IMG/VR virus record: IMGVR_UViG_3300045988_076504 | Span: 36,080-100,079 of that record | Source of the DNA: a virus | Length of the DNA: 64,000 bases | Reading direction: 5' to 3' (one strand) | Shown: piece after piece, positions 1 through 42,136 of the stretch | Layout of the letters: each line of letters starts with the position of its first letter | How positions within the stretch are numbered: position 1 is the stretch's first letter | Notes under the pieces: model-generated | Databases searched by the model: none | Told to the model about the DNA's origin: nothing | Seen by the model: only the letters and a program-made list of their open reading frames with translations | Translations under genes and position numbers: made by a program

Positions 1-260
1 ACTCTACTGATACCCGCAATAAGTGGACAAAGTGGGCTATAATAGACGTAGATACAATGTACACTACAAACAGGTCAAATATGAATAGTGTTTACAAATA
101 GCTGGGTAAACAACTACTTAGTAATTTGAGCGTGGATACGAATGGAAAAATCACATTCAGTTCTACTTATTCCGGAACAAGTACAGCAGGAATCAAATCA
201 CAATCTAAAGATATATTAACACCTATACTAAAATCGGAAATTACTACATTATTTAATTGA
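1..260 (+). CDS. C-terminal part of a late virion/tail protein (5' end lies outside the window)
   Basis: Frame 3 is open from the window edge to TGA 258-260 if TAG 99-101 is read as sense. It is co-oriented with the next late gene and 6 nt upstream of it. Confidence 0.5.
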
Positions 261-266
261 TAAAAT

Positions 267-914
267 ATGGCACAATATTTAGATTTAAACGGATTGCGTA
301 CGGTTGTAGACAATATAAAAAACATTAAATCCCCTGTTTGTTTACCTACTTACGATAGGCGTTCCTCCTTATCATCCACAGCAACTGTGAAAAATGAAAC
401 TGCCTCCTCATATACACTTATTATGTATGATACGAGGAGCTTGAGGTTTTTAGCATTGTCGAATGGAGCATTTTACACCAGGTGGGATTCTAATTCGAAA
501 CATTTGAGTTACGATTGTTATGGAACACCATTGGACACTGGTGTACAACCTAAATTTGGATATTTATATGCAAATGTATTTGATAATACATTATAGTTAG
601 GTGGAACAAATGGACAACTTAAAAATGTGGCAAATTATACAGCCCCAACAACATGGACTACTGTAACAACGTCTCCTATAAGTGGTGGGGATACAATTAC
701 AAAAATGGAAAAAAGCGATACTGGAAATGGTACATATTTGTGGAGAATAACTGTAAAAAATCCAAATGCGGACGCTTGTGACTTTCTCGTATAGGATGCT
801 GCCGGCAATAATTTCATACAGTATGGTATATATTTAGAAGGTAAGCAGTCTGGTACGTTTACAATAGAATTACCAAAAACAACTCCAAATGACCGTTTTT
901 ACGTCACAACATAA
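267..914 (+). CDS. Late structural protein of unknown function, 215 aa, with 2 in-frame TAG
   Basis: ATG 267. Track ORF 267..596 stops at TAG 594-596. The same frame stays open through TAG 792-794 to TAA 912-914. The antisense track ORF 635..817 is a shadow. Confidence 0.65.
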
Positions 915-971
915 TATATTTTAACATATTTTATCAAAAAATTGTACATTGATGCAACCATAAACGCATAA

Positions 972-1035
972 ATTTCCGTTATGGAAATATCAGCGGTAGC
1001 ACTTAGCTACCAGATTTATAGGTGTGCGAACACCT
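972..1035 (+). other. Three tandem perfect 6-bp stem-loops in a late intergenic region
   Basis: atttcc(972-977)/ggaaat(983-988) with loop gttat. ggtagc(995-1000)/gctacc(1006-1011) with loop actta. aggtgt(1020-1025)/acacct(1030-1035) with GNRA loop gcga. A 14-nt palindrome taacttgcaagtta follows at 1047-1060. Confidence 0.5.
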
Positions 1036-1947: not shown

Positions 1948-1960
1948 AATGGTTAATAGA

Positions 1961-1997: not shown

Positions 1998-2014
1998 ATT
2001 TAAATTTACAAACT

Positions 2015-2500
2015 ATGTTGTTTAAAGATTTGAATCCAAATTATCCGATATTTATCTTCAATAAAACAGATATTACTGTACAGGAAGGTAAAGTTATAAA
2101 CAAAGGTCTTCCGCATTTTGATATGTTGCATAACACTACTTCTGCGATGGTTACAGATATAACTATCAAAGCTGGAGATGTTACAAAAACATATACATTT
2201 AAAGACGATACTGAAATAGGGTATGCTGAAAACCTTGTAATATCTCCAAATAGAGATGCTATATTACGTGAGGTAGAATCTATCAAAGATCAATCTGAAC
2301 AAGTTCTTAACCAAATTGATCTACATAAAGCAACAGTAGAAAAATGTAACAAAGTATTGTCCGAGTTTAATCCGGTGTTTAAAGAGAAGAAAGAAACAGA
2401 ACAACGTTTCTCAAAACTTGAATCTTCTGTTGAAGATATTAAAACAATGATTTCAAATCTTTCAAACACTATAAACAATAATAACAATGGACAAGTCTAA
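2015..2500 (+). CDS. Late protein of unknown function with a coiled-coil C-terminus (161 aa)
   Basis: ATG 2015 is the first start after the terminator and shares its frame with track ORF 1949..2500. The stop is TAA. Confidence 0.6.
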   Translation: MLFKDLNPNYPIFIFNKTDITVQEGKVINKGLPHFDMLHNTTSAMVTDITIKAGDVTKTYTFKDDTEIGYAENLVISPNRDAILREVESIKDQSEQVLNQIDLHKATVEKCNKVLSEFNPVFKEKKETEQRFSKLESSVEDIKTMISNLSNTINNNNNGQV

Positions 2501-2984: not shown

Positions 2985-2986
2985 AT

Positions 2987-5866: not shown

Positions 5867-5873
5867 TCATTTT

Positions 5874-6306: not shown

Positions 6307-6822
6307 ATGAATAACATACTTACTTAGATTGGATATATGTTCAATTCTATATGTGGACAAAGCCAATGGGCTAAGTTATGGCTTGGAGCGAGTGCGTTGC
6401 TCACAGCATACGTTGTCCCTATAGTAGGATTATTAGTCGCTTGTTTTGCATTTACTACCGTAGATATGATCTATGGTATAAAAGTAGCAAAAAAGCTAGG
6501 ACAAAAAATCACTAGTAAGAAAAATTGGCGTGGTACACTCTAGAAAATAAAGGATGAATTCACCATTATATTATTAGCACATTTGTTGGAATACGTTGTG
6601 CTAAACGATCAGATACCATTTGTACTAACAGGCGGCACTACAGTTATAATATGTTTAACTGAATTATGGTCTATTCTTGAGAATTTACATACATTGGATC
6701 CAAACGGTCCGTGGAGATCTTTAGGTATGTTTTTAAAGAAAAAAGGTGGTGAATATACAGGGATTGAAATTAATAATAAAAACGATGATACAAGCGATAA
6801 TAACGTGGTTATTAAACCATAA
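6307..6822 (+). CDS. Holin (LL-H/TcdE-like phage_holin_4 type; 171 aa, 2 in-frame TAG)
   Basis: Track ORFs 6337..6543 and 6583..6822 share a frame and are joined by TAG 6541-6543. It has TM segments, the motif TTVDMIYGIKVAKKLGQKITSKK, and TELWSILENL. It lies immediately after the endolysin. Confidence 0.7.
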
Positions 6823-7429
6823 AAGAATCGCTGTAGAAGCCTTTTTAAGCCTTTGTGTGACATTATCTGTTTTGTATGGAATAACTATACATAAACAGAA
6901 TTAGAAGCTTACAGAGAGCTTAGAAATAGCTCAGAATAACATTGAAGCCTATTAGGGGTTGTTAAACAACTCTTAGTAGGCTTGTAATGTTTTATAGCTA
7001 GACATGTCTAAACTAAAAGAATCTAACGATAAATTAATACAACAAATAGACAGTGTTCGTAAAGAAAATAAAATTTCTTCAAAAGGTTTAACTACAGCAG
7101 CAACCCAAACGTAGGTTTTAAACGTTAATAGTAGTAAGGGGGTAGGGGGTTAGGTTATAGTTACTAAAGATACTATATATACAGATAGTATTAAATATAA
7201 CGACTTAACCAATGTATATTATAGTATAAGTAAAGACAGTATTTCTATAAGATTAGATGTACGTAATACTTAGTATCTATACATATATAAGAAAAAAGAA
7301 TATAAAAATAAGAAAAACTTCTTTAAACGTTTGTTTACATTAGATTTCAAAAAGGTTACTAAGTACAAGTACAAAATAGTAAATACTAACGAATTACTTA
7401 AAGGGGAAGATATAAGAATTATAGAATAA
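6785..7429 (+). CDS. Spanin-like protein with an N-terminal TM helix plus coiled coil (214 aa, 8 in-frame TAG)
   Basis: ATG 6785 overlaps the holin 3' end in another frame. The N-terminus is AVEAFLSLCVTLSVLYGITI, followed by heptad-like sequence. The stop is TAA 7427-7429. It is invisible under the standard code. Confidence 0.6.
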
Positions 7430-8562: not shown

Positions 8563-8581
8563 ATCTGTTATTGCAAAAATA

Positions 8582-18365: not shown

Positions 18366-21300
18366 ATGGGAGATATTAGAAAATTAAGAGCCATCTCCGC
18401 AAATGTGAGACGGCAAGAAGAATATCAGCAGCGATTGAGGAATGAAGAGCGTGAGAAAAAACGCAAAGAAGAACTTCTTCGTCAACGTGAAAAGGAATAT
18501 TAGGAAGCTTTAAAAAAGAGAAAACAGGCTGAAGAAGCCGACGCACTTATACGAAAACATAAGGAGGAAAATAATTATAAGCCTGTTGATTCTCTAATAA
18601 CAAAATCCGAAGAGCCTCAAAAACAAGATTCTGCCGATATAATAAGACCTGTAACTAAACCTCAACCGAGTATATATAAAAGTCCTTTTAGAGAAGATAC
18701 AATATTTGGAGCAGATGGTAAATTAAACAAGTACGATTGGACAAAGTCTGAAAAGGCTATGAAATATACTCCAATGGTACAAAAAATGGTAGATAAATAT
18801 AAGCAGGATGAGAGTGACAAGCGTTTGAGATATGCCACAACTCCTGCTCGTATTGCTAACATGATGGCAGATCAAGCTGATTTGGAAGAAGCTCTTGCAG
18901 CGATGGGTGCTCAAAATGATGCGAATACCATGGCAATGAAAGAGGAGCTTAAAAAGATCAAAAACGACATTCAAAAGGAAGTAGATTGGTATACTGCAAC
19001 AACACCTCGTAGTAATTAGAGTGATATTAGAACAGATAGTTCGCGACTTATTTCTTATTTTGATGCTGGTGGTATAGGAGAAGCTTCTGTAGATATAAAT
19101 CATGCGTTAAAACAGCAACAACAAGCTAAAAAGCTCGGTCTTATTAATGACGGTCAGTCTTTGCTGGCTGACGCGTATCACACGTTCATGATTTCTAAAA
19201 ACGAAGTTCAACGACAAACATCACAAGGTAAAATTAATACTCTATAGCAACAGTTAAATATGGCGAACCCTCAGGGTCTGGACGAGTATCAAGACATATG
19301 TGAACAATATATACAATTAAATCAATGGTTGAACAGTGTTAAAAGAAGATATACTAGCGGACAAGGAATTACACCAGAAGAGAAAAGACAATGGGATCCT
19401 GTACAGAAAAAGATCAACGAGTTAAATAGCAAGAAAGAACAATATGAAAATATGTTTAATAATCTTGCTACTTTTGAAAATCAAACAACTGTTGGAGATT
19501 GGGTGTCAAATTCACAAAAATACTTAAACAAACTCAATTTGGATTTTGGTACTGGTGTTGGAGGATCTTTGAAAGGATATGGTGAAAATATAACCGGTTT
19601 TTAGAAAGCATTGGCCAATAGAGATCAAAAAGCTGTAAATTTTTATAAAAACAAGTTAAAAGGTATATTTAAGAATTTCTCTGCAAAAGGTGAAGAAATG
19701 AAAAAACTTTGGTAGAGAGATTATGATATAGATACTGCAGATTTAAATCGTTGGACATCGGACTACAAAGTATCTGAATATTTCAAACAAAAAGAACAAG
19801 AAGCTAATGATTTAGCATGGTATAATCCTAAAAAACTATGGATGGCTCCGTCTTTGTTAGGATCGTCTATGTCTTCTCCGGAAAAAACATTAATGTCCGT
19901 GGGAGCCGGATTGATAGCTCTCATGGGTTCGATATTAGCTCCTGAGACAGGAGGTGCTTCTATAGCACTTACAGCAGGAGCCGTATCATTCTTAAGCAGT
20001 ATGGCAGCAGGAGCTGATGAGAACTTTGCAAATGTCGCAGATGCTACAAACGAAATAGCCAAGAAAGATTTAGCTAAAAAAGGTCAGATGGATAAATTTT
20101 TAGCTGATGCCAGACAAGTTCTTGGTTATAATACAACAGAAGAGGACGCGTTACAAGCATTTTATCTCGGCAAATATGTTCCGAATGACTTTAAGATACG
20201 TCAGACTTTGTTAGATGCTACGGCAGGTTCTGCAAAGCAGTATTATCAAGGTATGGGTGTAAATACATGGGATTCTCTTGTAGATGCTATTGTTACATGT
20301 ATGCCTACTGGTGGTATTGCAAAAGGATCTAAAGTTGGGTTCTTAACAGATAAAATCGCAAGTAAAGCGGATAGAAAGTTGTTGAAAGCTCAGCTTTCTA
20401 AATATATGAAAGCAAACAATGTATCTCTCAAAGAAGCTATCAAGGCTTTCAATGAAAGCGGTGCTAGTAGAACAACAATATAGAACGCCATAAATGATTT
20501 ACGACAAGCTGTCAATGCTCCTGCTAATTATCTAAGAACGCTATCTAAAGACGTTGTAGAGAAAATGGGACTCCCTGTATTGCAACAAAAAGCAAATGCG
20601 TTGTTAGACAAAGGTCTCGCTAAAATGGCAGAAAGATCTTTAAGACATACAGCTAATGTTACAGACATGCTTGCAGCTGTTCCAGAAAGAGTTTTGAAGT
20701 ATAGAAAAAACTTAAGACTTGCTGGTAAACTAGCAAAAGATCTAGGATGGCGTACAGCAGCGTCTATGTATTCTGAAGGTGCAGAAGAAGGTATTCAGCA
20801 ATTGCAACAATATCAACGTATGGAAGAAAGGTCGAATGCGTATTTCAATGTATTAGAACAACTTCCTCTTACGATAATTGATGGAGCTAAATTATGGAGT
20901 ACGTTCTTATTTAAGAATCCAGAGAACCTTACAGCGCAAGAAAGAGATATAGTACAACAGATGCATGGTGGTATATTGGGAGCTTTGTTACAAGGTGGAC
21001 CGATGATTGCAGCACAAGGAGTTGGTGGTACGTATAAGCAATACAAGCTTGATCAGATTATAATGAATAACCTTTTAGCAGACAATATAGCAACAAATGA
21101 CTATCTTGATAAAGCTAGGATTTTGTCGCAAGAGCTTGGAAAAGGGAATTATAAGAACATTATAGAAACTCTGAATCAATACGATGAGTTAACTACAAAT
21201 ATGCGAAATCGTCATAAAGACGATCCTAATTGGGCGCTTCCTCAAAATCATATAAGCAATCTCCATAAACTTTTAAATGTTGTTGCAAATTTGCAACAAA

Positions 21301-24300
21301 ACGAAGAGGTTAAAAAAATAAAGAATTCTATTTTTAATTATGAAGATGATACGAAAGGCGTTATAAGAAAAACCGCAAAAGGTATATGGGATAATACATT
21401 TAATAGAAAAGATGCAAAACGCAGAAGCCAACTTAGAGACGATTATAATACATATATAGGTATCTTAGCAACGAGGTTGAACGAGATAAATGATTCCAAA
21501 CAGTTCTTGGACGAAAAGACAAGAGATCTTATTTCTGCAAGATTTAATCAAGGTACATTTGAAGACTATGTGAACAACAATCAAGCTAATCCTCTTGTAG
21601 CGGAACTATCTACAAAAATTGAAAAAGATGAACACGGATATCATTTGGCTGACGCATATAAAGATAACCAAGATCTACAAGAGAAGTTTAAATTGCTACA
21701 AGAAAATTATTAGACTCACAATTCGAATGCAGAAGTACTCCATAGTCTTATAGGTTAGATGCAGACGATGCAGCTTTTACAAGACATGGAGAAGATTAAA
21801 CAACTCCCAGGAGGAACCACACTGTCATCTAGAGCTAAGTTTGAAGTTGATCGTACTAAAAAACGACTTCGTGAGTTACATGGCGATAATATAAAGCTTG
21901 ATACAGAAGAAGATGTTAAGAACTTTGCAGCATCACAAGGCTATAATATAGACGACGATTATGTGGATGCATTAAGACAGGTATCTGATGCTAGAATGCA
22001 AGTGAACTTCAATACGGAAATGTTCAACAGGCTCATTACAAATACGAAAGACGCTGTAAAAGCTGTCAAATCATTTAAAGAGAATCGTAAAGCCGATGAG
22101 GAGTTAAGATAGAGTATTGAAGATGATTTCTACAACAATGAAATAGATCGTCAAAAGTTCGAAGCGTCGGAAATAAACGATGATAACAATACATTTACAA
22201 AAGACGGTAAAACGTATGTTGTACGTGATGATTCTGATGGTGTACGTAGAGTATACGAATACGACTCTGAAAACGACAAGCTTGTTCCTACAAATAAATA
22301 GTTCAATAAACGAGAGTGGTACGATAGTAGATAGTAGTTTGATGCTGAAACAGCAGACCATGAAAAACTCAGAGCTAAATATGACGATTATAAAAGCTTG
22401 CTCGATAAAGATGTAAATGATCTGACGGATCAAGAGAAAGAAAGACTTGAAACATACAAAGGTATGTTAGATAAGTTTAATCGTTTTGATGATTCTGAGC
22501 AAGCAAGAAATAAGTATTTAGAAGATGCTTCTAAGACTCCAGGATTAAAAACAGATTATACAGAAACCTTTAGAAATTTATCAGAGTACGCTAGCGAAAA
22601 AGGATATACTCAAGATCAATTTGATAGCCTTGTAAACGAATTAGCAAAAACATCAAACGATGGTTATAGAACCAGAGAATAGAAAATACGCAAATGGGTT
22701 GAAGATGGTAGAGATGTCGAATATTCTTATACAGGAGATTCTTATTTTATTGGAAGCGATCATGTGTCAAAAGAAGCTTATGATTATGCTAAATGGTTGC
22801 AAAAACGTAACGAAAATCAAGATGACGTTGTAGAAGATGACGAAGTTTTGGTAGAGCCTCCAATTGTTCCAGAGACTCGACCAGAAGATGAAGATAACTA
22901 GAGAAAAGCTTATCAAAAGCCAGAAACTACGTTTACGCATAATGGAAAGCCTATCACCTTGCAACAAGCTTAGGTTTTAACACAACTGCAGCCGTATCTA
23001 GCATCTGATGAAAAATATCATTATGAATGGCGTACTAGTGAAAACTATTTTATAGAAGAGAATGGTAAAATTGTAATGTACAATCGTCTACATAGTTTGT
23101 TAGATCCGTATATTGCAGATGAGCCAGAAAAAACAGAATCTATAAAAGAAAATACAAGAATATTACAAGCCGCAAGAGACAAATGGAAAACCGCTATTGA
23201 CAATAACGAATCTTCTGACCGAATTAAAGAGTTAAGAAAAGAGTATGTTTCATTAATCGAACAAATGCGTGACGATTATAACGAAATAGTTATGCTCAAA
23301 TATAGTCAGAATGAATCAGATGTTAAAAGATTCTATTTAAATTTTGATGGATATTTTCAAAATGACGACATTCTTATAAGCGATGATGCTGTAAACGCAA
23401 TGGCTACCATGCTTGCTCGTAAAGATAACAATTTGTTCGAAGTTGGATCTACCACAGTATCTGGTACAATTGTAGACGAAATAGCAAGATCTGTATTCGC
23501 ACATTCTCGTGTGGACAATATTCCAAGATTTAAAATGAGCGATGAAACATTTTCTAAACTCGTTAAAGATCTAGAGAAAGAAAGAGATCGCTGGGAATCA
23601 CTTGGTTATACTATTGTAACAGAAGGATTGTGTTTCCATGGTGAAATCCAAGACAAAGATGGTAATATAGTCCGAGTTGCTGGAGAAACAGACATGTTAG
23701 CAATAGCTCCAGACGGGTCTATTACAATCGTAGATTATAAAACGTCTAAGAAATCATGGGAAACTAAACAACGTCCTACAGGTGTACAAAGTACCGAAAG
23801 TGTTATAGACGCATTGGATTGGCAATATAGCAAACGCTATGCTTTTGGTAAACGACAACGTTCTACAGCAAGAGTATTCTATACAAATCAATTGAACGCA
23901 TACAGGCAAATGATAACAAACTGTACTGGATTGTCTGTTGCAAATCTTCAACTGATGGGATTTTAGACAGATATTGAAGAAAGTAATGATAGAATATTGT
24001 TAAACAAAATAAAATCTATTAGCGAACCTACAATTGTAGATATTGCTGTATTAGATCCTGTATTGAGTGAACATTCTTATATAGAACAACGTAGTGTAAT
24101 AGAAGAAAGAATAAAGGAAACTAAAGAGCGTACAAAAACCGCATTTAAAGAATATACCGATAAGTTTGCTGCTGTTGGAGAATTGATGCAAGACGTTCAA
24201 GATCCTAAATTACAAGCTTTGTATAAATATGCGAAAGAACAGATTGATAAGATTGGAGACATTGATCAGATCAACGACTTGGACAGATTAAACTAGCTTT

Positions 24301-27300
24301 ATAATTGGATCAATAATAGCATGTCCAGTTTACGTAATTTGGAAGCGGAAGCTCAACAAGCATTGAATGCTCAATCAGAAGATGCGTCTAGAAACGAAGG
24401 TGTTACACCTAACAGCAAAAAATTCAATGCTCCACACAGAGTGTATAGTGATGAAGAGTTGAAACATTATAATCACACAGCACAGGATCCTAAATTCTTA
24501 AACGCCCAATAGAAGAAAGAATTACAAACGTTCAAAGATTGGACAACACGACCAGATTTCGCATAGAATGTTCAGTTTGAAATAGATTTCGATGCGTCCG
24601 GGTTTATACATGGAGTACCTACAGCGGGTACCAGATTAAAATTCAAATCTATAAGTTATAACGGTGTTAAATTATCACCATCCGTTGTGCAGAATATTTC
24701 ATTTATGTGGTCTGTTGATCAAGACGCATCATCATTACGCCAGCGTCTTATACAATGTTTTAATGACAATTATGACGATATCAAATCTGGCAAAAAGAAA
24801 ATCATATTAAAGAACGTACAAAGAACAAACGGTAAATTACTATTCGGTGATACTTCTAAAAATGTACAAGAAGCGTTGGAATTGTCAGACGAACAAGTTT
24901 CAAATTTGTTAAATTATGATAGCGATGCTGTACTATTAATATCGGATAGTGCTGGTATTGTACGTAGATTGGATAGTGAAGATAAGAAAGCCGGGTCTGG
25001 AACCGCTGAGCGTATTTCTAAAAAAGAAGAAAATAGAAACCGTCCTGGTATTGTATACATACAAAAGTAGCTGCATTATGCTGAAGATGAAGGATCTGGA
25101 AATAAACCACACACAGCTTTAATTCCGCTCACGCCTGCTAAAATGTCATCTGGTGCAGTAGATCTCATAATAGATATTCTTACAAACACCGGTAAATCCA
25201 AAAATATGTCTGCAAAAGACAACAACGGAAATTCAATACCGGGACCTATAAATAGATCATTACTGTTACACTACTTAATCCGTTTTGGAGGTGGTGCTGA
25301 AGCTATGATGAATAGTTTCCAATTCAATTATGAAAGTAATGGTCAAAACGGTTTGGACTACAGTAAAGTATTCATAAGTACAGATAGAGGTTAGACAAAA
25401 ACAACTTATAACTTAAAAGACATACAAGATGTATAGAAATTAAGAGAGTGGTTGTTAAATAATGCATATTTGAATGTACAAAATATATCTTTGATTCGAG
25501 ATAATGTAGCAACATCTAAGGACGGTATTTTTGCAGGAGTAAAAGAATGGTTTGATAATCATCCTGATGTAGAATCTATATCATACTCTGACGAATTTGT
25601 AATAACGAGAGATGATGTAAATTCTAATATCGGAGGAATACAATGGATGATTAAAAACAACTGGTTGCAATCTCAGTATACTGGTATTACGGACGCTATT
25701 GTATCTGCTAATGATTTTGACATAATAGATCAAGTTCAAAACGCTCCAGAAAATATTTAGAAACAGCAAGATGATTTTGATCGAGCTGTGGAAGAGCAAC
25801 TAGGACCGATTCCGGACGGTGTAAACGATAACAACGATCAAAACACAACAAACGATGCTCCGATCTCTTTTGATGACTGTGATAACGCTTGGGGAAACAT
25901 AATAGATCCTAGCGCGACACTATTCATGAGAAACCCAGAACATCCAAAACGACCGATAACAGAAAAACGTCAAATGGACAAAGCTATTCAAGATGTCAAA
26001 AGGATGTGTGGAGATACAGTTCTCATAGAAACGTTGGACAGTGTTCAAATGGCTGAAAGATTTGGAGATGCTGTTGGAGCATGTACTCAAGCAAGTATTG
26101 TGTTATCGTACGGTGCGGAAAACGGAGTTCAATACCACGAAGCATTTCACAGAGTTGTAGAATTAGCAATGCCAAAAGATGAGCGAGACAAATTGTATAA
26201 TCTGTACAAGACTAAATACGCTAAGAATACAAACCTTAAAGATAAGGATGTTGCTGAAGATTTAGCCGATATGTATTTTGATTACAGTAAGAATGTATGG
26301 CACCCGAGAAATAAGTTGTTTGCAAAACTATTCTCGAAAATATATAATTATATAAATGCTTTATTGACAACAAAAAGTTTTAAATTTGCAGCAACGTTTG
26401 TTAGAATTGATTACGGTAAATATGCTAAGAATGAAATAACAAAAGAAAATCAAGACCGTTTTACAAAAGAATTCCACAATGTACTGAAAATGACATTGAA
26501 AGATTCTACTGGTAAGGAGCATGTATTTAATAATGTATATACACAAACACAACTAAAAGACGCTGTTGATGTATTGTTACCTTTAATAATCAAATCTCAA
26601 GGTATCGATATTCTTGGTTCTAACGCAGATACTCTAAAAACAGATAAAAAATCTTTGCTTGCAGAAGGTTCTAAATTCGCACAAATATATAGACAGTTAA
26701 CGTGTGGTGATGCTACTGAATTATAGTTAAATCAAGCTGTTGCGGAAGGTAAGTTGTCTCCACTAACAAGAAATAATGCATTAGCTTTACGAGAAGTGTT
26801 TGACAACTGGTCTCTTGTACAACCGATGTTGGAAGACAAATTACGTGCCGTCGGACTTCGTTCGAAACTTGGAGATGTCAATCAGATAAGTGCAGATGTA
26901 ACTAGTCATACAGACGATGCCTTTTATTCTCATTCTATGAGTGACGATATAGGTTCTGCGATGCTTTATTTACTTAGTACTATACCAAATCAAAGGTATG
27001 TTACACAAGAAGATGTGGCTTCTGGCTTAGCTAAAAACATGTATGCTACAGATAAAAATGGAAATATTATAATGGAGAATGGTAAACCGAAACGCGCTAC
27101 TATTCCAGCAATACGTAATAGTTTCGGAATGACTTCGTATCTTCCATTTAAAGCTGTACACCAAAGAATGTTAACAGAATTGCACGATGTAAAAGATGTT
27201 CGTGATTTGGTAGAAAAACTTAAGAAGTTAGGAGAAGTAGATTACTTATTTAACACTCTTGCACAGTATCTCGAAAGATTTAGATACTTGTCATATATAA

Positions 27301-30300
27301 GGTTTTCAGATAAAGAGAAATTTGGCGAATATGTAGGATTCCCTGTCGTGATGTATAAAAACGCAATAGTCGATCCGTCATATTATATTGCAGATACATC
27401 TATTCGTAATGAAGATACAATGTATCCTAAACAAATACGCCTCGTTAAGGATTTAAAGGACAAAAAGGGCAATCTCATATGTAAGGCTGGTGATATATTA
27501 CAAGGAGCTGCTATATTGTAGGATCAAGATAAACAAACATTAACAACGTTGTTTTATCAGTCTATAAAATCACAGAAGATGAATTTCAACTTCTTCAACA
27601 TTAGAAATTCTAAAGGTGAGAATGGAAGATATGAATATTCATATTAGCCTACAAATACAGACAGATCAATATCTCAGTTGCCTATAGGGTGGTTTGATAA
27701 TATTAGAATAGGTCTTACAGGTTTGTATAACAAAGATGGTTCTGTTAATAAGTCTAACAAATCATTTGAAACGACAAGGCAATTCTTGATGTCCATAAGA
27801 AACCAGCTTATTAATAATTCTGGATAGGTATAGATTGGTGATAAGATATATAAAATGAGCGACGCCGCTGATTTCGATCATGTTGTTTCTGCTACTGTAC
27901 AATCTTTAAATAATGTTGGCATAATGGTAAATAAAGCAACATGGTACAACATGTTGCATCGATTAAATCCGAACGAAACCGATTACACAATATCGTTTAG
28001 AGAGATCATGACAGCAAGTAACGAAAAAGGTCTTAGTATCGCGCCATTTATAGAAAAAGGTGGAGTATTAGATAAATTACAAAAAGCTGTTGATTCTGGC
28101 GATTTGAATATGTTTACACAAGACGTTGCACAAACTGGAAAGAGAGGTGGTTATTCTGGAGCATATTTATACGCTAGAAATAATTTTGTTAGAAGACTTG
28201 CTGAAGAAACCGGTGTATATCGGTCAGCAACATCTGAAATAATGACAATTGGAGCAGGAGATACTAAATTGTATATGTATGCTCAAAACAATACCGCATC
28301 TGATGTTACTGACGATTTGAATTCATCTCTTAACGAAGACGGTACGGTTAGAGAAGGATCTATTTTGAGCGATATGTAGAATGTAGAATATGTAGTTTAT
28401 CATGACGACCGTGGCGGTATACATGGATCTGTAATAGCAAAGGCTTTATTAGATCCTAATTTTAATAGAAATCATAACAGACTCGAAGTTATTACAGAAG
28501 CCGGTTCTAAACAAAGATTTGGACCAAGAGATAGCGTAAAGTTTGCAGAAATGGAAAAACGAACAGATTATCTTTCTCGTATTCAAAAAATAACAGACGG
28601 TCTTATCATATTCCCAACATTGTCTGATAAATCCACATATATGACAATAAAAGGTTTTGATAAACAGTACAGACTTCCAGGATTTAATTACGACTAGAAT
28701 ATTACAGAAACAAGTTCTACTGCAGATTTAAATAATTTCGGGAAACTTCCGTTCATAAATAAAAACAACGGTGCTCTTATATTTGATGCTGCTGATAAAT
28801 ACAACAATTATTCTCAAAACGAAGTGATCGACCAGTTTATAGAGTATTATGAAGCAGAACATCGTAATGTGTTAAAAACGTTAAATGAACTTGGATTTGG
28901 TCCGGACAAAAGTAAAAAATTACCTAAAGAATAGCTGGTTAAGAACTATCATACCGGTAGTATGAACGGTGCGAGATATACTTCTATTTCTGGAATATAT
29001 GATGAAAATGGTAATTTTATATCATTTAATTTTAAAACCGATTCCGAAGATAAAGGTGTTATTGAATGCAACAAGATTGCAGAAACAGAATTCTTTAGTA
29101 AGCCGATAGAAGAAAAAAGAGCGATTGTTGCTAGAATATTAAAACACAGACTTGATGACGAATTACGCGGTTTGGTTGATGCCGGAATTATACAAAAGCA
29201 AAATAATGACAATTCTTCTCGGAAGAATGCAGATTATAATAATTATAAAAACGTGTTTTTATCGAATAGTGTGATAACACAACTAAAATAGGCGTATTCG
29301 TTAAATGAAAACTTTAAGAAAGCTGCGCCTGGATCATTAAATACTGAAAGTTTAGCTGTAGTAGCGTATGTATACGATATTATGTGTAAACATCTGATGT
29401 GTATAGAAGAAACACGTAGATTCTATACAGGTATGCCCCAGTTCTTTAAAACAAGTTTCGGAGAAGATGGTCGTTTAACTGTTTTTGGAAATGATGAAAC
29501 AAAACGTTACGGTGGTGTCGGATCTACTGGTGTAAACAATAGAGAAGATATTCCGGGAATGAACGATGATTATCGTGTAGCTGAAATAAATGATTGGGAA
29601 ACACCGTCTCCGGTTTTAGATTCTTTAGGAACGTTGTTTAAGATTGGAGAATATAGAGAGGCAGTCGCTAATATAAGATTGCGAGAGCTTGGAGAAAATG
29701 CAAACGAAATTTAGAAATATGCTTTGTATGATTCTGTAAATTAGATGGACGAAGATGCAATGCGAGAAGTACTAGATGAAGCAGGCGTATTAAAAATGCT
29801 GGATAAAAAGATAGAAAAAGAAGCAAAGGCTTTCTCTAATGTGAATGTAGCTGATGGTACGGCATTCATTAGTGACAAGATGTGCGAAAATCTTTTGAAA
29901 CAGCGTGGCGCATTTACAAAAGCTGTTGAAAATGCATTTAAAATACTGCGTAGTGATTCTGACGATTATCTGAAATTGTCCCAGTCATATAAAATTATAC
30001 ACAACGCTATGATCTCTACATAGAAATATTCAGCGTTTGGTTATAGAATGGAGAATGGTACACCTGTACATTATTATAATAAATATGCATTATTTCCGGT
30101 CTTTAAAGGAATATCGTACGGCTTTATGAAGAATCTGTATGAAAAAATGAATGACGCTGAGAATGGAGTAGATGTTGTATTGTTTACATCTGCTGTTAAA
30201 GCAGGATCTCGTGGAGCACAGCGTTTTGATCCGAACATATCTCAAGAAGAAATTAAAAATTTCTCGTTTAAGGGTCATATATATAAGTAGAAATACAAAC

Positions 30301-31157
30301 ATATGCGTAGACAGTTGAACACTGATCCTAGAACAGACGAAATAATGTCTGCTGGTACACAGGCGTTAAAAGTTGTATTATCTACATTACGAGACGGATA
30401 GACATACAATATACTTGGACCAGACGGTTAGATACACGAAGCCACATCTTCCGAAGTTAGAGATCGTGTAATGGAATTACTCAATAAGATTGCTGATTCA
30501 GGGTGGAATAAGTTGTAGGATCAATTCTTCACAAACGGCAACCTTGATTATTCAAAACTACAAGACTTCTTAATTCATGAGTTACTTGGAAGAGATGCTG
30601 ATCAAAATATACTCGATGCTTTGTAGCTCAATGAAAACAAAGATGGCTTCATAGTAGATTTAAATAGTGTTTCTAACATGACTTGGGTTGAAAGTATTTT
30701 GACGTCCAAAGTAAACAAAGATGTTATTGATTTACAACTTAAGGGAAACGCATTCTATCAGAGATCTGTATTTGGTATGGATAGTCCTTATATCGCAATG
30801 AGCGACGATGAAGTGTCCAACGAAATAAATGGAGGAAAACCATTACAAATGATCAATGAAGAAGGTAGTATGGATGCTGTGGTATCTATAGATTATTTTA
30901 TGGATATTATTCCAAAAGAATACAAATACAATTTTAATAAAGCTAAGCAGTGGCTTATAGATAATGGTATTATATCCGGTGTAAAAACTGGAGAAATAGC
31001 ATGGAGCAATGCAGAAGCAAACACCATGTCGTATCGTATTCCTACACAGGCTGCATCTTCAATCGGCGCATTACGATTTGTAGATGTGTTACCTATTGTC
31101 AGAGACACTATTGTACTGCCTAAAGAATTTACAGCTTAGACTGGTTCTGACTTCGAT
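18366..31157 (+). CDS. Exon 1 of the giant virion RNA polymerase polyprotein (4,264 codons, ~41 TAG)
   Basis: Twenty-one track ORFs from 18759 to 30678 are all in frame 0, and every gap contains only TAG. The exon ends ...TGSDFD at 31157. It contains a RecB-like nuclease motif set (GETDMLAI / IVDYKTSK / QLNAYRQM) and HEAFH at 26135-26149. Confidence 0.8.
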
Positions 31158-32083
31158 AAACATCAATGTCGAAATAAAAGTATGTGAATTGCTGGGAAAT
31201 CCCTATGGGACAATCAGCAGCCTAGCCCTACGAAAGGGAAGGTTCAACGACTAATAGTATATTATATAATAATTCCTCATAAATTGAAGAAAGAAATGAA
31301 AAAGATTTTAAAAAATAGATTAAATGAAAATGGTAGAAATCTCCTAATTGCCGCTGCACTTGGAGATGGATGTATAAGTAAACAAGGATAGATGTTAATA
31401 AATCATTCTTGGAAGCAATACGAATATTGTAAATGGAAACGAGAACTTTTAAAAAAGAACGGAATAAAAGTAGGTGTTTTACAACGTTTTGAAGGTTCAA
31501 ATGGATATTTAAAACACACAATACAATATAGATTTTGCATTGGTATTACACCATTTAACAAAGTTCTAAGACGTATTATGTACAATGAACACGGTAAACA
31601 TTATTCTCGTAAATTATTAAACAGACTAAGTCAACAAGGTCTTGCCTTGTGGTTTATGGACGACGGTGCAATATTACGTAGAAAATATAAAGGTAAATAT
31701 TGCGGGTTCTATTTAAGAATATCTACATATTGTACATCACAAGAAGCTGATGATATTATTAAATATTTTGTTGAAGAATGGGATATACACCCTACCAAAG
31801 TACATGAAAATAAAATAAAACATTATGATGCTTATACTATCAATTTTGGAGCAAAAGAAGGTAAGAAGTTAATAGATATAATTAAGCCTTATATGTGTCC
31901 AAGTATGATGTATAAAGTGTTATATGATATCGAAGAATTAAAATCTTATTATGATATACAAGATGTGAGGGAAGTTCTCACAGAAAGTACATTAGAGTCT
32001 GATAGACTACTAATGGAAGCGCATACTACATCGAAAGATGTAAAGATATAGTCTAATCTTCGTAGCAATACGAAGTATAAATG
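31158..32083 (+). mobile_element. Group I intron (926 nt) carrying a homing endonuclease gene
   Basis: P1: exon ttcgat(31152-57) pairs with gtcgaa(31168-73), with a U.G pair at the splice site. P10: caat(31164-67) pairs with exon-2 attg(32084-87). The last intron nucleotide is G. The core-like string is aaggttcaacgacta, and gacta pairs with tagtc at 32049-53. A hairpin cttcgta-gcaa-tacgaag lies at 32058-32075. Removal shifts frame 0 to frame 2 and restores GSDFD-IDKLY. Confidence 0.85.
31296..32051 (+). CDS. LAGLIDADG homing endonuclease with two motifs, encoded in the intron (251 aa to TAG 32049-51; one internal TAG at 31389-91)
   Basis: The motifs are LLIAAALGDGC and GLALWFMDDGA. ATG 31296 is in frame with track ORF 31392..32051 through TAG. 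If the terminal TAG is also read through, the ORF ends at TGA 32082-84. Confidence 0.85.
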
Positions 32084-35000
32084 ATTGATAAGTTATATAT
32101 GTCTACACTTCATTATGATGTAGAGTCTGTTGACAACGATTATATCGATAAAAAAGGATAGATACACAGAAGAAAGACATATAACGCTAAATCTTACAAT
32201 TTATCAGATGTTACAAACAATAACACAAACGAGTTGTTGCGCATATATTTGTCTTTGTTAAAAGATACCGGATAGTACAAAGATGGAAAGATTGTAGGTG
32301 GAAGATACGGACACGTATTAAGAAGATCTATTGATAGTGATACGGATTTGATAAAAGAGGTTCTTTCAGAAATAGAAAGTAGTATAGAACAAAAAGCATA
32401 CGAACCGTATCAATTTGAAAGTATGTCGTTTTAGGTTAATACCAGATCTGCATTTGCAACCGGTAAAACTGGTATCGGACCATTTGCGCTGAATAACAAC
32501 AGTCAAATTCTTACACAAATATATGGCATCAAGTTTATAAACGATGGTGGTATATTAAGTTCTTTCGGAGCTTTATCATTAGATAGGACTTCGGACGTTG
32601 ATGGAAAATCTATATTATCTTGGATTTCTGGTATGATTAATGCTCACGTAGACGTTGCGAAAGACCCGTATATATTGAGATTAAATATCAATAAAGACAC
32701 ATATAATCTTGCAGCATTGTTATTACGTTTAGGATTTGGAAGACACGCTCTTTATTTCTTAAACAATCCTGTAATGAGAGAGCTTTCTGCTATACGAAAT
32801 GAGCAGGACGGATAGATTGTAAACGACCCTGGAAAAACTCCAACACAGCGTAAAGAAAAAGCTGAGAATGAATACATTAAAGATGTATTCGGTAGTAATA
32901 GTGTGGCATTCTCATACGTAAATGCAAAACCAGATGAAAAAGATGATATTGCTAAACGAGCTTTTAAAACGATTGTACAGATATTTGGAAATCCTTTTAA
33001 AGAACATAAAGATACTACAATATTACAAAGTATTTGTTAGAGTTTGTATGGAGAAAATGGTGAGAAAAAGGTAACAGATCTGTCAAAGGACAAGATATAT
33101 AAGTTGGAAGATGGTACAAAATTATCACCATTTGAAGTTCAACAATATGTATATATAGCATCTAAAGAATTTGAATCTTACGCTTAGGGTTTGTCAGACT
33201 TAGTACAATATACTAAAATCGACACAAAGAAACAAGGTATAAATTATACAGAACAGTAGAAGTATTTGCAAGGTTATGAGAAACTTTACAATAGCGGAAT
33301 GTTTAATTCAAATCTGAAACAATTGTTGAACGATTCTTATATACATACAAAAACAATATACGGTACTTCATTCTTACCTAGAGTATTAGGCGGACAAATG
33401 ATCCATATGTCATATCAATTCCAAGCTGAAACAGAATCGATTTTGGATAAAATTAACAACCATTCTAAAAATTCTAGAGAAGCTGTACAAAAAGCAATGC
33501 TGTGTTATATTAAACAAAAAGCTTTCAATAAGGCGTTTAAAGATTATGTTGATAAATATAACGAGCAAAATAATACAGACTACACAATAGAGAAATATTG
33601 GGAACATTTAATAAAAGGAAACGATACTTTATCTAATCGTATTTAGAAGCTACAGAGATGGATATAGGCTGATAATAAAGGACTGCTAAAAGAATTCGGT
33701 TAGAATGGTGTTATAACAAATGCGATACTTAAGAACTTATATCCGGTACCGTACATATCTCAATATGGGCAAGATCACTTTGATATTATCACTTTAGGAA
33801 ATAATAGCGAAGATGAAAAATCTATAAGTAATGATTATATATATTCATGGGAACAGATGTTAAATTATACAAATAGTGAACGTCTGGGATTACAGAAATA
33901 TATTAGAGATTTAGCTAACGATCTTGCTATATACGCATTTATGACATCTGCAGACAGTAAAGGATTTACAAAATTCTTTAAATACGCGCCACTTCAATGG
34001 AGAAAAGAGTTTGGATATTGTGATAATATTGCGGAAGCAAACAAAGAATATCAAGAAGGTGGTCTCACATTAACTACAGACAATGTTAGCGAATACGGTA
34101 TCGATTTCGATGATTTTATATAGAATTTCTATTACGACAACAATATATTACCGGAAACGTCTTTAACTGATCGTAATGGTCGCCAACAAATGGTTACTTC
34201 AGCATTTACATATAACACTCTTGACGAATACGGTAATCCTACATTACGTACAGAACCTAAAAATATAATAGGTCTTAACATGCGTGGTAATAAATATGCA
34301 CAAAGTATTAGTAAAAACAAAGACGGATACTTCCCAGAATATATAAAAACACGTAGAAACGGAACACGATATAACGATAACGATCAATTCCTATTGTATA
34401 AACTCGTAGATGTCGGAATTGTAAAGAATGGAAATGTCGAATTAGAATATCCAATATATCAAATTATAAACGCCAAAGGTTTACAAATGCAAATTGGTTC
34501 ACAAACATATCAATTCTATTCTTGTGGAATGAATGATAATTACGAGCGTTCTCAATTTACCACGAAAGATAAATCTGGAAATAGGGTAAAGCCAACCATG
34601 GAGCAAGTGCAAGAGTCTTATAATAACCGCAAAGCTGCTTTATAGAAATACATCAATGAGAATAATTATTCTATACTTGATGCGGTTAAGAAAGCAGGAC
34701 TCGTTAGTAAGAATGATATATTTGGAGGACAGTTATCTAGTATACAAGAAGCGGCATATAGCGGTATAGGTTCAAATAAGAATACTGTGAATGTTAACTT
34801 CGGAGCAAGCGATAATCCACATTTGTCTAATTTTGCAAAACGTCCTATTTCTGATATATTTGACGTAGTTGAAAGTTTTATTAATTCTCCAGAGTTTTAT
34901 AAAATAAAATCTACGGTTAAACATAAGGCAGACACTGTAGAAAATGCGTTCTAGGCGTTAAAAGTGTTGTATTCTGATTTGAATGATAATGATAAGGTGG

Positions 35001-35386
35001 TTAAATTTAATCATATTATATCACTACCGTCTGCAAAACAAGCTAGAGCGGAAGGTAGATCGTTACCTATTAGTAGTACAAAACTTAAAATGTGGGACGA
35101 TATAAGTACTGATGTATTACAGTCTTTGATGAGGGCTTCTTTTGAGCAGAATGAAGACGCAGCGCAAGCATTGGTTGATACTGGTGATAAAATAATAACA
35201 CATGATAACGCAAAAGGTGAATCTTTAGATGATAGATTTGCTCCAGCATTGACTCAGATACGCCAAGAGTTAATAGATGGAGGACATGCTCCAAACACTG
35301 TAAAACAACAATAGTCTTTGAAAGATTATCCCGCTAACGAGGCTCTTGATGAATTAGCAGATCAAATAGACGAACAATGTAAATAA
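32084..35386 (+). CDS. Exon 2 of the giant virion RNAP polyprotein (1,100 aa, ~14 TAG), with a NADAR/DUF1768-like C-terminal domain
   Basis: Frame 2 is open from the splice site and joins track ORFs 32633, 33266, 33857, 34190 and 34964. The true stop is TAA 35384-35386. The C-terminus reads HLSNF ... ENAFQALK ... MWDD ... ASFEQNEDAAQALVDTGDKIITH. Confidence 0.8.
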
Positions 35387-38300: not shown

Positions 38301-41300
38301 ATGAAATCTATACAATGAATCAAGAAATAGATAGTGCTATTGTTCCGAGGGGTGAAGAATTAGAAAAAGCTTTAAAAGAAGCCGAAAACGAAATGTCTAT
38401 TTTAGGAAATCATAATCCAGTCAACGTAATGACGATGTTGATGCAAAAGGATAGACGTGGTTATTACAACGGAGATTTTGTACAACCTATTAACAGAAGA
38501 CAATATTTTCAAGATCTTGAAGATTTTAAAACTGCGTTGTTGTTTGGAAAGGGAGGGTTGCAAGACTAGTTAAAGAAAAAGATCAGCAATGACTTTGAAT
38601 TAGAACTAGACGAATATGGAGAACCTGCAATACCAACAGGTGTTGAGTTTGATGATATATACAAAGACTACAAACGTAAGATGGAAACGTTTATATGTGA
38701 TCATGCTAACAGACGTTTTACGAAAGAGTATTATTTGTCTCGCATAGACACATTGTCTCCAACTACTATTCGTGTATTAGATCAATTTAGTAGGAAAATT
38801 AGTAATTTGAAAAATTCTGCAACGGTTGATGGTAAATTCAGACCAGACCTGCTAAGTTCTAAACAGCGTGCAGAATTAGCACAGCTTTAGAAAGATAGAC
38901 AGGAATTAAGTAACCCGTATGATCAGTTTGGAGAATTAAAAGATCCGGATTTTATTGAAGGAATCGTAGCTAAGGAATTAAATGACTGGCAGGACGTAAT
39001 AAATGGAGAGATAAAATATAAAAGCGACGTAGAAGCGTTCAACGAATGTCTTAATAATATACAATCTCAAGCAGAAAAAGATCAATTTAAACGCATGTTT
39101 GCATATGTTGGTTTAAATCCTAACATGTATAACTTTTTAGCAAAATATGAGTATATAGGTCAAAATGATGCTGTTAGACAATTACTTGACGAAATAAGCG
39201 AACTACGTAAGAAACTTCGTAAACTAATCGGAATAAACAAAGATCGTTCGTCATATCTTGGTTATAATTGGGAATAGTTATTCGATATTCGTACAGGAGA
39301 GATAAAAAACGAAAAACTTTTAGCAGAAATACGTAACGTTGATGATTAGTTACAACTTAAATCACAAATGTTGCGTAATATAAGGAAGAGCGACAAAGAA
39401 GACGAAGATACATTTGGCGACAAATGGCAACTCATTCCAGGCGTTTCGTATGGCAGATTATTTACACAAATGTATTATGGTAGTGTAAATATAGATCCTA
39501 CTTAGAGTAGTACTCAGACTGTATATTCTCCAAATAACGACACTGTTTATGAAATCGTACGTAATAATTATATAAATTATCTGACTAGTAATGGAATGTC
39601 AATACAAGACGCTACAGATAAAGCATCTTAGATGTTAACTATAGGTCATAATACACCGTTGTCCATTTTCATGGTGTAGATGCCTAGCAGCAAAACATTT
39701 AAATACGAAGATGAAAATGGTGTCGAGCATAGTGAACCGTCTTTTGTATGGATTCCAAATCAATTATTTAGTAAGGTGGATACTGAAAATTCATCTTCTA
39801 GGTTTATAAATAAGCACTTTGACGAATCATCCGGAGAAAGTGTACAGCCGAAGGAAGAAGACTATAGAGACGAGCGGTATTACGAAATGATAAAGCATCC
39901 AAAACTTAACGATTTATACGACAAGCTCGTAAAAGGTATGTAGGATGTTTACAGTATATTGCCGTATTCTGGTAAATACGATATGAGACTTCCACAAATG
40001 GGAGCTAACACAGCTGCGATGTTGACAAGAAATTTATCAAACGATTATGGTTTTCATTTTGCATCAAACCTACGGTCTGTATTTAATAGATTTGCCAACG
40101 CTACTGAGATAGATACTGATTATTATATTCCAGAATACAATAGACGACCAGATGGCAGTACTATTAAAAACATACCAATTAGGTATATAAACAGAATAGA
40201 TGATTCTAGAAATATATCTTCAGACTTAGCTGGTGGTGTCATAGCGATGTTGAAAATGGCTACTAACTATAACGTTAAAAGTAAACATATATCTAAATTT
40301 GAATCTATATTAAATTCTATTAAGGAAAACGATGTTGGAGAATCTAATCAATCTCGTGTAGTAGAAGGAATGCTCGACAGATTAATGTATGAAAATCAAA
40401 ACAATACAAAGAAAAACAAGGATGTTGAAGATATAAGTAAGATTAGACGTATATTCATAGGTGGCCCTAAAACTCTGTTAAAACGTTTAGGAATCGCAAG
40501 AGGTGCTTCAACACTTATAAACCTTGCAGGTAGAGGTGTATCTATGATAGTTTCATTTTTAGATCCTTTGCTTAGTACGTTTATAGAATCACTTACCGGT
40601 AGATATTATGGTGCGCGCGATCTTATGTGTGGTGTATTCGATACATGTAGAGAGTTCCCATTAATGCTTGCTAGTATTTCTAGAAGAAAATCTTTTAGTA
40701 AAACTATGGCTATTATAGACGCTCTCGGTATGGAAAAACCTATAGAGCATAGATTTTCTAATATGCATCATTCTTCTATAAGACGACTTCTTTCTGACAA
40801 TTTAATGATGAAAGGATTTGAAGTTGGAGATTATACGATAAAAGCTTTTAACGTAAATAGTATATTTAGAACTTATAGAATGTACACCGATAGCAACGGG
40901 TAGGTTTCGTTCTTAAATAAATACGACTATATACAACATTGTATACAAGACGGGATGTCTAAAAAAGATGCGGTGAAAGCTTACAAAAGTGCAAGAAATG
41001 CTCGTTCTTATTTATATGTTAAAAATGGAAGCTTAGCTTTCAAGAGTGGTATGACAGAAGATCAATTTAGAAAACTTGGAAATGCTGCGAAAAAGATTTC
41101 ACAGAATATCACACTTATGGCTAATACTGAAGATAAAACGTGGATGCAAACTAATCCGTGGACAGCTTTCATTACAATGTTGCGTACATTTATGCTTGTA
41201 GGATTTGGAGAAAGGTTTAAGAATTTTAATGATTTTATTGTTGGTACAGACGAACATTACGATCCTACAACCGGAAATGTTATTACTGATATATCTGATA

Positions 41301-42136
41301 GAAATCTTACGAGTCGTGAAATAAAACAATAGAAAAAATAGCATTATTATAGAGGAGGTTATAATTTTATGACAGGTCACATTGAAAATGGTATATATAT
41401 GAGTAACCTCAAAGCTCTTAAAAGATTAGTGTGGGATGCTTAGAAACACAGAATTAGATTCAATCGCTTTTTCTTGAAATATAGTAATATGACACAAGAA
41501 GAACTTAAAAAGTCTGACATATCTATGGCGGAATTATATTCACTTAAGCGTATATTATTAGAATTGTCTGTCGTTGCAGGTTGTGTTACAATGTCTGTTT
41601 TAGTAAATAGACATTGTCAAGGGTTGGATCCAGATGACGATGATAATTATTGGTGGTTCTTGTTAAATTCAATTTTCATGAGAATTGGTATTGAACGTGT
41701 TACAATGTATAATCCTTAGACTGTTAGTGATTTGATTACGTCTATAACAACATTAACTAGTGCAACTTCTAAATTATTTGGTGTATTTGATGTACTTGGT
41801 GATTTCTTAGGTCTTACAGATCACGATCCTAATGAAATCATAACATCGAATAGTGCATATAATGGCTATACACGGTCTTACAGAGCTACAATGAACGCTC
41901 TTTCAATTTTCGGTACAGCTGGTTGGTTTGCAACAATGCCTAAATCATTAGGAGGTGGTGGAGCTAGAGCTCTTGACAAGTCTGCAGGATGGTATGCTAA
42001 AACTGCTCCTTGGAGGTTGTTATATAAGAATCAAGATGCTGGATATACACCAGTAGAAAAAGATTATAAAGATCCGTCTCTTGCGACAGATGATATTTCA
42101 AATTCTGATTTAGCTACAGACGACGTTATAGAATAA
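35396..42136 (+). CDS. Polyvalent virion effector protein (2,246 aa, ~26 TAG): ART-PolyVal-like domain, HExxH metallopeptidase, and a C-terminal TM region
   Basis: ATG 35396 lies 9 nt after the upstream TAA. It joins 12 track ORFs in frame 2. It contains FKEWFGDWE..VIDENGEPLVVYHNT..ALFLNLKNPLE..ITPNQIKSATDNVGTF, plus HEMIH at 37004-37018. Hydrophobic segments fall near 41540-41700. The stop is TAA 42134-42136. Confidence 0.75.

Follow-up and report, generated by a model that had tools for sequence, protein, structure and literature searches.

We analyzed a 64,000-nucleotide (nt) stretch of viral DNA (positions 36,080 to 100,079 of IMG/VR record IMGVR_UViG_3300045988_076504; hereafter the window) that carries two convergent gene blocks differing in their use of the codon TAG. 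The plus-strand block holds late genes for virion and lysis proteins, in which TAG is a sense codon that most likely specifies glutamine (Gln). The minus-strand block holds early and replication genes, which keep to the standard code and sometimes end in TAG. These two blocks are also visible in base composition, as GC skew and AT skew are both positive from position 1 to ~42 kb and negative thereafter. Predicted products of the early block include a PD-(D/E)XK-like exonuclease, a Toprim primase (weak match), an AAA_24 ATPase, a DnaB-like helicase and a sigma-70-like factor. The features of the window are collected in Table 1.

Calling genes on the plus strand from position 1 to 42136 with TAA and TGA as the sole stops yielded 18 long genes, comprising 13,838 codons, in which TAG occurs in frame 136 times and TAA and TGA never. 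Composition does not account for this lack of TAA and TGA, because both are abundant in the two other frames of the same genes (464 and 855 occurrences of TAA, 205 and 589 of TGA). All 18 genes terminate at TAA (13) or TGA (5). The first-pass annotation of this DNA had claimed that the plus-strand genes are broken by TAG only, at roughly 135 in-frame positions, and had named in-frame TAA or TGA at comparable density as the observation that would overturn this view; our counts bear the claim out. The gene ends that it listed (914, 1947, 6305, 14591, 16642, 18363, 35386 and 42136) were reproduced exactly, and all are TAA or TGA. Read with the standard code (table 11), the same 42-kb block splits into ~150 short open reading frames (ORFs).

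The minus strand presents the opposite picture. Its 26 ORFs in the window (5,580 codons) contain no in-frame TAG, whereas ~51 would be expected at the late-gene rate, and three of them use TAG as terminator (Table 1). The first-pass annotation was thus correct in describing these ORFs as uninterrupted and one short in counting two TAG stops. Reading through these terminators would add 6-43 codons. Between the blocks lies a hairpin flanked by an A-run and a T-run, which overlaps the final codons of the minus-strand gene at 42192-42692 and looks like a bidirectional terminator.

In-frame TAGs are unevenly distributed among the late genes. They are enriched in the GH24 lysozyme (5 in 143 codons, p = 0.011) and in the adjacent 214-amino-acid (aa) membrane protein (8 in 214, p = 0.001). 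Depletion is seen in the major capsid protein, which has none in 507 codons (p = 0.01), and in the fibre, where 959 codons include 1 against 8.8 expected (p = 0.0015). Sequence context is biased as well: across the whole late block, 50% of in-frame TAGs are followed by A, as opposed to 27-35% of CAA and CAG codons (chi-square p = 1.4e-6), a preference that may stem from selection for efficient suppression.

Table 1. Features of the 64-kb window, with coordinates and in-frame TAG counts
Feature	Position	Strand	In-frame TAG	Remarks
Late gene, 215 aa	267..914	+	2	Stop TAA
Late gene, 249 aa	1198..1947	+	3	Stop TAA
Two late genes	1949-2500, 2487-2984	+	0	Second: weak DUF7841 Pfam match on record
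Fibre-like protein, 959 aa	2987..5866	+	1	Faint YadA_head Pfam match on record
GH24 endolysin, 143 aa	5874..6305	+	5	
Holin (Phage_holin_4_1), 171 aa	6307..6822	+	2	
214-aa protein, hydrophobic N-terminal stretch	6785..7429	+	8	Densest in window; adjoins holin; possibly a spanin
CrAss_Ring_2 tail ring protein	7437-8120	+	1	
150-aa protein between ring genes	8110-8562	+	0	
CrAss_Ring_1 tail ring protein	8537-9397	+	1	
crAss muzzle protein (crAss_MUZ), 1,734 aa	9387..14591	+	16	Pfam
Two late genes, 686 aa and 574 aa	14582..18363	+	5 and 9	Both stop TGA
Giant virion protein, exon 1	18366..31157	+	41	
Group I intron, 926 nt	31158..32083	+		
LAGLIDADG homing-endonuclease ORF	31296-32084	+	2	Intronic
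Giant virion protein, exon 2	32084..35386	+	14	
Last late gene, 2,246 aa	35396..42136	+	26	Stop TAA
Hairpin, 13 pairs, A-run before and T-run after	42182..42212			Between convergent blocks
Early/replication block, 26 ORFs	42192..63993	-	0	Standard code
tRNA-Leu (anticodon UAA)	52975..53059	-		Sole canonical tRNA in window; not a suppressor
Early gene ending in TAG	53155..53682	-		Read-through +43 codons, into tRNA-Leu gene
Early gene ending in TAG	56292..56744	-		Read-through +32 codons
Early gene ending in TAG	62975..63430	-		Read-through +6 codons

The complete genome and the extent of recoding

As reconstructed from sequence, the window is 64 kb of a circular 100,020-bp Crassvirales genome assigned to Suoliviridae and Oafivirinae-like. 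The late proteins carry crass-specific Pfam families (CrAss_Ring_1, CrAss_Ring_2, CrAss_Ring_3_4, crAss_MUZ and Crass_capsid), and the best GenBank relatives found by tblastn are Suoliviridae/Oafivirinae phages such as cr7_1 and cr124_1 (62% aa identity for ring protein 1; ~75% nt identity for the portal gene). A megablast search of GenBank phages with the muzzle gene returned no match, nor did an exact 42-mer scan of IMG/VR. By exact-protein look-ups, which were unsuccessful for 1949-2500 and 267-596, the window sequence is present in several independent ~100-kb assemblies of one Peruvian gut sample (SRR1761707), which are 100% identical where they overlap. We assembled the complete circle from the window and loci L005, L099 and L095; it corresponds to the 100,075-bp contig NODE_65 less 55 bp, presumably an assembly overlap at the contig ends. 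For this lineage, read-through products of full length are already on record in a public protein collection.

With the circle in hand, the limits of TAG recoding can be placed. In window-oriented coordinates of the complete genome, a divergent intergenic region (74365-74595) marks the start of the late strand. The seven ORFs that open this strand lie outside the window, total 1,353 codons and contain no TAG against 12.4 expected; this TAG-free leader of ~4 kb includes an HNH gene, a dUTPase gene and a gene for a 172-aa protein. TAG use starts with the terminase gene, which directly follows the suppressor transfer RNA (tRNA) gene described below, and runs to position 42136, with 184 in-frame TAGs in 20,068 codons, 136 of them within the window. 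The code partition therefore follows expression class and not strand, and the convergent terminator is only one of two code boundaries. The first-pass annotation had called the code strand-partitioned, which holds inside the window and fails genome-wide, and had set its boundary at the convergent terminator, where the hairpin does separate the blocks, leaving out the second boundary at the terminase gene. Its central proposal, that TAG is sense in the plus-strand virion and lysis genes while the early genes retain the standard code, stands. We refine it in that the code does not belong to a strand of DNA and would depend instead on whether the suppressor tRNA is present when an mRNA is translated.

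The gene ends listed in the first-pass annotation also implied one open frame at 18366-35386. This proved incorrect, because a TGA at 31185-31187 and a change of frame interrupt it, both of which arise from a group I intron. The apparent genes at 18366-31187 and 32081-35386 belong to a single gene as its two exons, and the TGA is intronic and not the stop of the gene. A guide sequence, GUCGAA (31170-31175), pairs with exonic UUCGAU to place a U.G pair at the 5' splice site (U31157), Q-, R- and S-like core elements are readable, and the intron has a terminal G at 32083. The Rfam group I model (RF00028) gives partial matches of 43.1 bits (31177-31263) and 23.5 bits (32041-32073), both under its gathering score of 50. 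Removal of the intron joins the exons in frame (...TGSDFD to IDKLYM...), and the homologous proteins cr272_1 gp23 and cr7_1 gp32 are continuous across the site. The spliced product is 5,364 aa long and contains 55 TAGs, which implies a need for an efficient suppressor and would make near-cognate leakage an unlikely source of the protein.

Other mobile elements reside in this genome. According to Pfam matches on record, the terminase large-subunit gene (outside the window, L099 6656-9172) harbors an intein with a LAGLIDADG domain, and a NUMOD4 homing-endonuclease gene lies 3' of the portal gene (outside the window, L099 12496-13161). Together with the intron described above and that of the tRNA gene considered next, there are at least four homing-endonuclease elements.

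A split gene for a putative suppressor tRNA

No suppressor tRNA was found in the window, where all 104 calls returned by ARAGORN with relaxed thresholds and introns allowed were noise. Elsewhere in the same genome, we identified two half-tRNA segments (L099 4444-4480 and 5463-5499; 76432-76468 and 77451-77487 of the assembled genome) on a locus that is 100% identical to other loci of the genome where they overlap. The segments lie in the TAG-free leader directly upstream of the dUTPase gene, the same place that tRNA(CUA) occupies in cr7_1. The insert between them measures 982 nt, carries a 300-codon HNH ORF without TAG, and splits the anticodon between U35 and A36. When joined, the two exons fold without constraint into a full cloverleaf (-26.8 kcal/mol) with the loop CUCUAAC and the anticodon CUA; the predicted ligation joins ...GCGCGCCGGGCUCU to AACCCCGGAGGAG.... 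U is the last base of the 5' exon and G that of the insert, and R- and S-like group I elements (CAGACUAAAC ... CAAUAGUCG) are found at the 3' end of the insert.

Related contigs provide independent views of this locus. The exons of an intron-bearing IMG/VR relative (L030) equal the intron-less tRNA(CUA) of two others (L015 and L045) over 72 nt, with the junction falling between CUCU and AAC, and this coexistence of intron-less and intron-bearing alleles fixes the insertion point. In L014, the intron mode of ARAGORN at its default threshold reports a tRNA(cta) whose 983-nt intron lies at position 35 and is 85% identical to that of the genome studied. A compact, ORF-less intron of 228 nt occupies the same tRNA site in L018 and three further contigs. 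GCUCU and GGAGC make up its P1, which places a U.G pair at the splice site. The L018 copy is matched from end to end by RF00028, with 21.4 bits (E = 0.002), short of the gathering score. All five exact IMG/VR matches to the exon-1 type bear an intron. In L096, which is 99% identical in the portal gene, an uninterrupted and likewise non-canonical tRNA(CUA) sits at the same spot.

The presence of a tRNA(CUA) gene and the exact position at which it is split are thus established, and its role as the suppressor is putative. We further considered that a mobile, HNH-encoding group I intron separates U35 from A36, so that the CUA anticodon would exist only after splicing, and that the mature tRNA would have a non-canonical elbow. 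We regard this fuller account as evenly balanced between being right and wrong. Three observations weigh against it: RF00028 finds no match in the ORF-containing tRNA intron of the genome studied, we could not find a P1 guide sequence in that intron by eye, and the D and T loops of the spliced tRNA are non-canonical, with neither ARAGORN nor Rfam accepting it as a tRNA.

The same failures of recognition, of both the spliced product and the intron, also speak for the rival view that the split gene is dead and TAG is read by something else: a host suppressor, a near-cognate tRNA-Gln, or an odd tRNA-like element with a short anticodon loop. Candidates for such a role exist, as the early region encodes a canonical tRNA-Gln(UUG) and the genome contains two tRNA-like genes with anticodon loops of 4-6 nt, and host-derived or highly divergent suppressors have been raised previously (Yutin 2021, PMC7886860). 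Several lines of evidence nonetheless make a dead gene improbable. Perfect cloverleaf pairing and the CUCUAAC loop are kept in the diverged split copies of L018 and L103 and in the genome studied, the location matches that of intact tRNA(CUA) genes in relatives, and the intron has a 5' U and a 3' G at its ends along with its R- and S-like core elements. In addition, the 55 TAGs of the giant virion protein demand efficient suppression. Near-cognate reading is unlikely to supply it. We therefore favor the split tRNA(CUA) gene as the source of the suppressor.

Among the individual candidates, we rejected the tRNA-Gln(UUG), encoded beyond the window end, as the TAG decoder, because it has the wrong anticodon and lies on the early strand. 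The two short-loop tRNA-like genes were also considered as suppressors. One, at window positions 45452-45523 (-), passes the Rfam tRNA threshold with 36.6 bits, has a 6-nt anticodon loop (UAUUAA) and is followed by a T-arm-like hairpin at 45428-45444. The other, outside the window at L005 5198-5266, passes the same threshold with 56.3 bits and has the anticodon loop CUUA (4-6 nt).

Additional small RNA features were noted in the early region. A permuted transfer-messenger RNA (tmRNA) match at window positions 60874-61104 (-) reaches 57.5 bits against a gathering score of 47; in relatives, permuted tmRNAs are detected by ARAGORN, their tag peptides including GNTSYVMDYTRLAA, and cr7_1 has one annotated in RefSeq. 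It is conjectural, but a tmRNA in a stop-suppressing phage might handle ribosomes that read through host stops. A cluster of such features occupies L005 4340-5600, on the early strand ~2.7-4 kb past the window end, and comprises the canonical tRNA-Gln(UUG) together with two sub-threshold matches, namely a hammerhead-like core (CUGAUGAG...GAAAC; 26.6 bits) and a RAGATH-12-like element (33.7 bits). The motif GGTTCGTGA(G/A)AATAG is repeated ahead of several of them. Finally, the segment from thyX (Thy1) to the tRNA (L005 95-958) is inverted relative to the more distant IMG/VR relatives L015-L045. Here thyX is on the early strand; in L015-L045 it is on the strand opposite tRNA-Leu and the tmRNA, and the tRNA(CUA) that follows ~5 kb downstream shares the strand of thyX.

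The meaning of TAG in the late genes

To assign an amino acid to TAG, we aligned codons of five close relatives (L008 and L010-L013, 85-98% identical) over window positions 1-14.6 kb. Opposite window TAGs, these contigs have TAG 128 times, CAA 22, CAG 9, TAC 5 and other codons 6 times, such that Gln codons make up 31 of the 42 replacements. The reverse comparison agrees, with window CAG (16) or CAA (4) opposite 20 of the 30 TAGs in question from the relatives. As TAG to CAA takes two base changes, this pattern points to selection for Gln and not to mutational proximity. More distant sequences give a similar result: against the ~30%-identical cr7_1, cr131_1 and cr272_1, the commonest residue at TAG columns is Q (27), followed by TAG itself (24), and the residue profile resembles that at the window's own CAA and CAG columns.

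The GH24 lysozyme offers a test at conserved positions. Its TAG at residue 78 (T-Q-G-X-F-G-A-L-V-S) falls opposite the Gln of T-Q-N/T-Q-F-D-A-L in all four PDB homologues shown, and its TAG at residue 114 opposite the Gln of D-Q-F-L-V-W in three of the four and apparently in the fourth too. The first-pass annotation had singled out a TAG at a conserved Gln of this endolysin and proposed Gln as the likeliest meaning, suggesting a tabulation of residues at TAG columns; our comparisons support it, Gln being the commonest replacement at TAG columns. We conclude that TAG most likely encodes Gln in the late genes, a reading that the alignments support well.

About one quarter of the substitutions at TAG columns in close relatives are non-Gln (TAC, AAG, GAG and others), and these weigh against that assignment. 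They include TAC (5), AAG (2) and GAG/GAA (3), and could be taken to mean that TAG is sense for a different residue, such as Tyr, Lys, Glu or pyrrolysine; the default ARAGORN label for CUA tRNAs is indeed 'Pyl'. This alternative is very unlikely given the preponderance of Gln codons in both directions, among them the 22 CAA that lie two base changes from TAG, the two lysozyme sites on conserved Gln, and the resemblance of TAG columns to CAA/CAG columns. Moreover, the CUA tRNA of cr7_1 is annotated as tRNA-Gln in RefSeq, and metaproteomics is reported to have confirmed Gln at TAG in two other crAss-like phages (Peters 2022, PMC9523058). Least tenable is the view that TAG is an ordinary stop and the fragments are separate genes, decayed pseudogenes or products of assembly error, since, for all that table 11 does return many short ORFs, it is already refuted by the codon statistics (136 of 136 breaks are TAG, with TAA and TGA plentiful out of frame), and the merged genes give products that correspond to complete crAss proteins (muzzle, ring proteins and the ~5,400-aa giant protein), independent assemblies are identical, and TAG positions are mostly conserved among relatives.

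A proposed two-phase decoding scheme and its known counterparts

We propose that this phage decodes its genome in two phases, TAG-free early genes being expressed first and a phage tRNA(CUA) then allowing UAG to be read as Gln in late genes; we put the probability of this at about 90%. In the early phase, the replication and regulatory genes and the first ~4 kb of the late-strand unit, all TAG-free, would be translatable by an unmodified, standard-code host ribosome. The switch would come from the suppressor tRNA(CUA), encoded in this TAG-free late-strand segment and presumably charged with glutamine by the host glutaminyl-tRNA synthetase. As the suppressor accumulates, UAG would be read as Gln, and only then would packaging, virion and lysis proteins be made at full length. 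At this stage, the three TAG-terminated early genes would be read through as well, by 6-43 codons. If the tRNA intron is as we describe, it would have to be spliced out to create the CUA anticodon, probably through self-splicing in vivo.

That the suppressor gene lies within a segment devoid of TAG and directly upstream of the first gene to contain the codon supports such a temporal switch. Several observations weigh against the scheme: besides the non-Gln substitutions at TAG columns and the points noted above against the split tRNA and its intron, Pfam scans of the 26 early proteins in the window detected no release factor and no aminoacyl-tRNA synthetase domain. We speculate that TAG acts as a gate, and perhaps as a throttle, on late and lytic gene expression. 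This view fits the distribution of the codon, because late genes never stop at TAG, the lysis cassette is densest in TAG, and capsid and fibre are sparsest.

For annotation, the consequences are considerable: the standard code yields ~150 false ORFs in the 42-kb block, and TAG as Gln yields 18 genes, including the 5,364-aa virion protein. This problem and its solution have been published, and current tools cope with it. The suppressor gene is of broader interest. In ~60% of TAG-recoded phage genomes, published surveys did not find a suppressor tRNA, and undetectable suppressors are noted by Yutin (PMC7886860), the Borges preprint (bioRxiv 10.1101/2021.08.26.457843) and the zeta-group paper, none of which reports introns in suppressor tRNAs. 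The genome studied offers one concrete reason for missing a suppressor, in that an intron-split and structurally unusual gene escapes standard tRNA finders. Should this prove widespread, part of the gap would be accounted for by intron-split or divergent suppressors, and, if the intron is spliced as proposed, splicing could add a further timing gate to the code switch.

Recoding of TAG to Gln in late genes of crAss-like phages, to which the first-pass annotation had rightly pointed as a precedent, is an established phenomenon (Yutin 2021, PMC7886860; Borges, bioRxiv 10.1101/2021.08.26.457843), and it is real here, in a lineage without a close phage relative in GenBank. The published code-15 phages share with ours the order Crassvirales and the delta/Suoliviridae group, the restriction of sense TAG to the block of structural and lysis genes, with standard decoding of the replication genes, the inference of Gln, and a tRNA(CUA) as suppressor, putative in our phage. 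The Borges preprint describes the same layout with lysis genes preferentially recoded and proposes a temporal-switch model; in our phage, too, lysis genes are the most heavily recoded. A genome divided into code blocks is also the target case of Mgcod, which is described as written for block-wise dual coding (bioRxiv 10.1101/2022.06.29.495998). Our phage differs from the published examples in lineage, with ~75% nt identity in the portal gene to its nearest GenBank phage record, and in having a suppressor that is intron-split and has non-canonical D and T loops, which the surveys do not report.

The closest comparison is with the nearest RefSeq phage, cr7_1 (Burzaovirus coli, NC_055895). It shares the gene order of the late block, a giant protein of ~5,400 aa, TAG-recoded late genes (the longest ORF of its late block is 231 aa under table 11 versus 2,505 aa with TAG as sense), a tRNA(CUA) directly upstream of the dUTPase gene and a tmRNA-like gene in the early block. 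Unlike the phage studied, however, cr7_1 has an intact and canonical suppressor tRNA and an uninterrupted giant gene, and protein identity between the two is just ~30-65%.

The split tRNA itself finds its nearest counterparts in bacteria, in which group I introns interrupt the anticodon loops of cyanobacterial tRNA-Leu(UAA) and tRNA-fMet and of Azoarcus tRNA-Ile (PMC3984707). By contrast, all phage group I introns known at the time of that 2014 review were in protein-coding genes, so that group I introns in phage tRNA genes, if confirmed, would be a class of which it had observed none; the literature we searched, with incomplete coverage, held no counter-example. Like the bacterial introns, the phage intron lies in the anticodon loop, follows a 5' exon ending in U and ends in G (PMC3984707), and its compact 228-nt version forms P1 with anticodon-arm sequence; the tRNA-fMet intron also carries a homing endonuclease. 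Differences include the interrupted gene, which is that of a putative phage suppressor tRNA, the insertion between anticodon bases 35 and 36, an endonuclease of HNH type that fills nearly the whole intron, and RF00028 support that is weak (21 bits) or absent. Taken together, these comparisons suggest that the intron-split, atypical suppressor tRNA is the new-looking part of an otherwise familiar recoding system.

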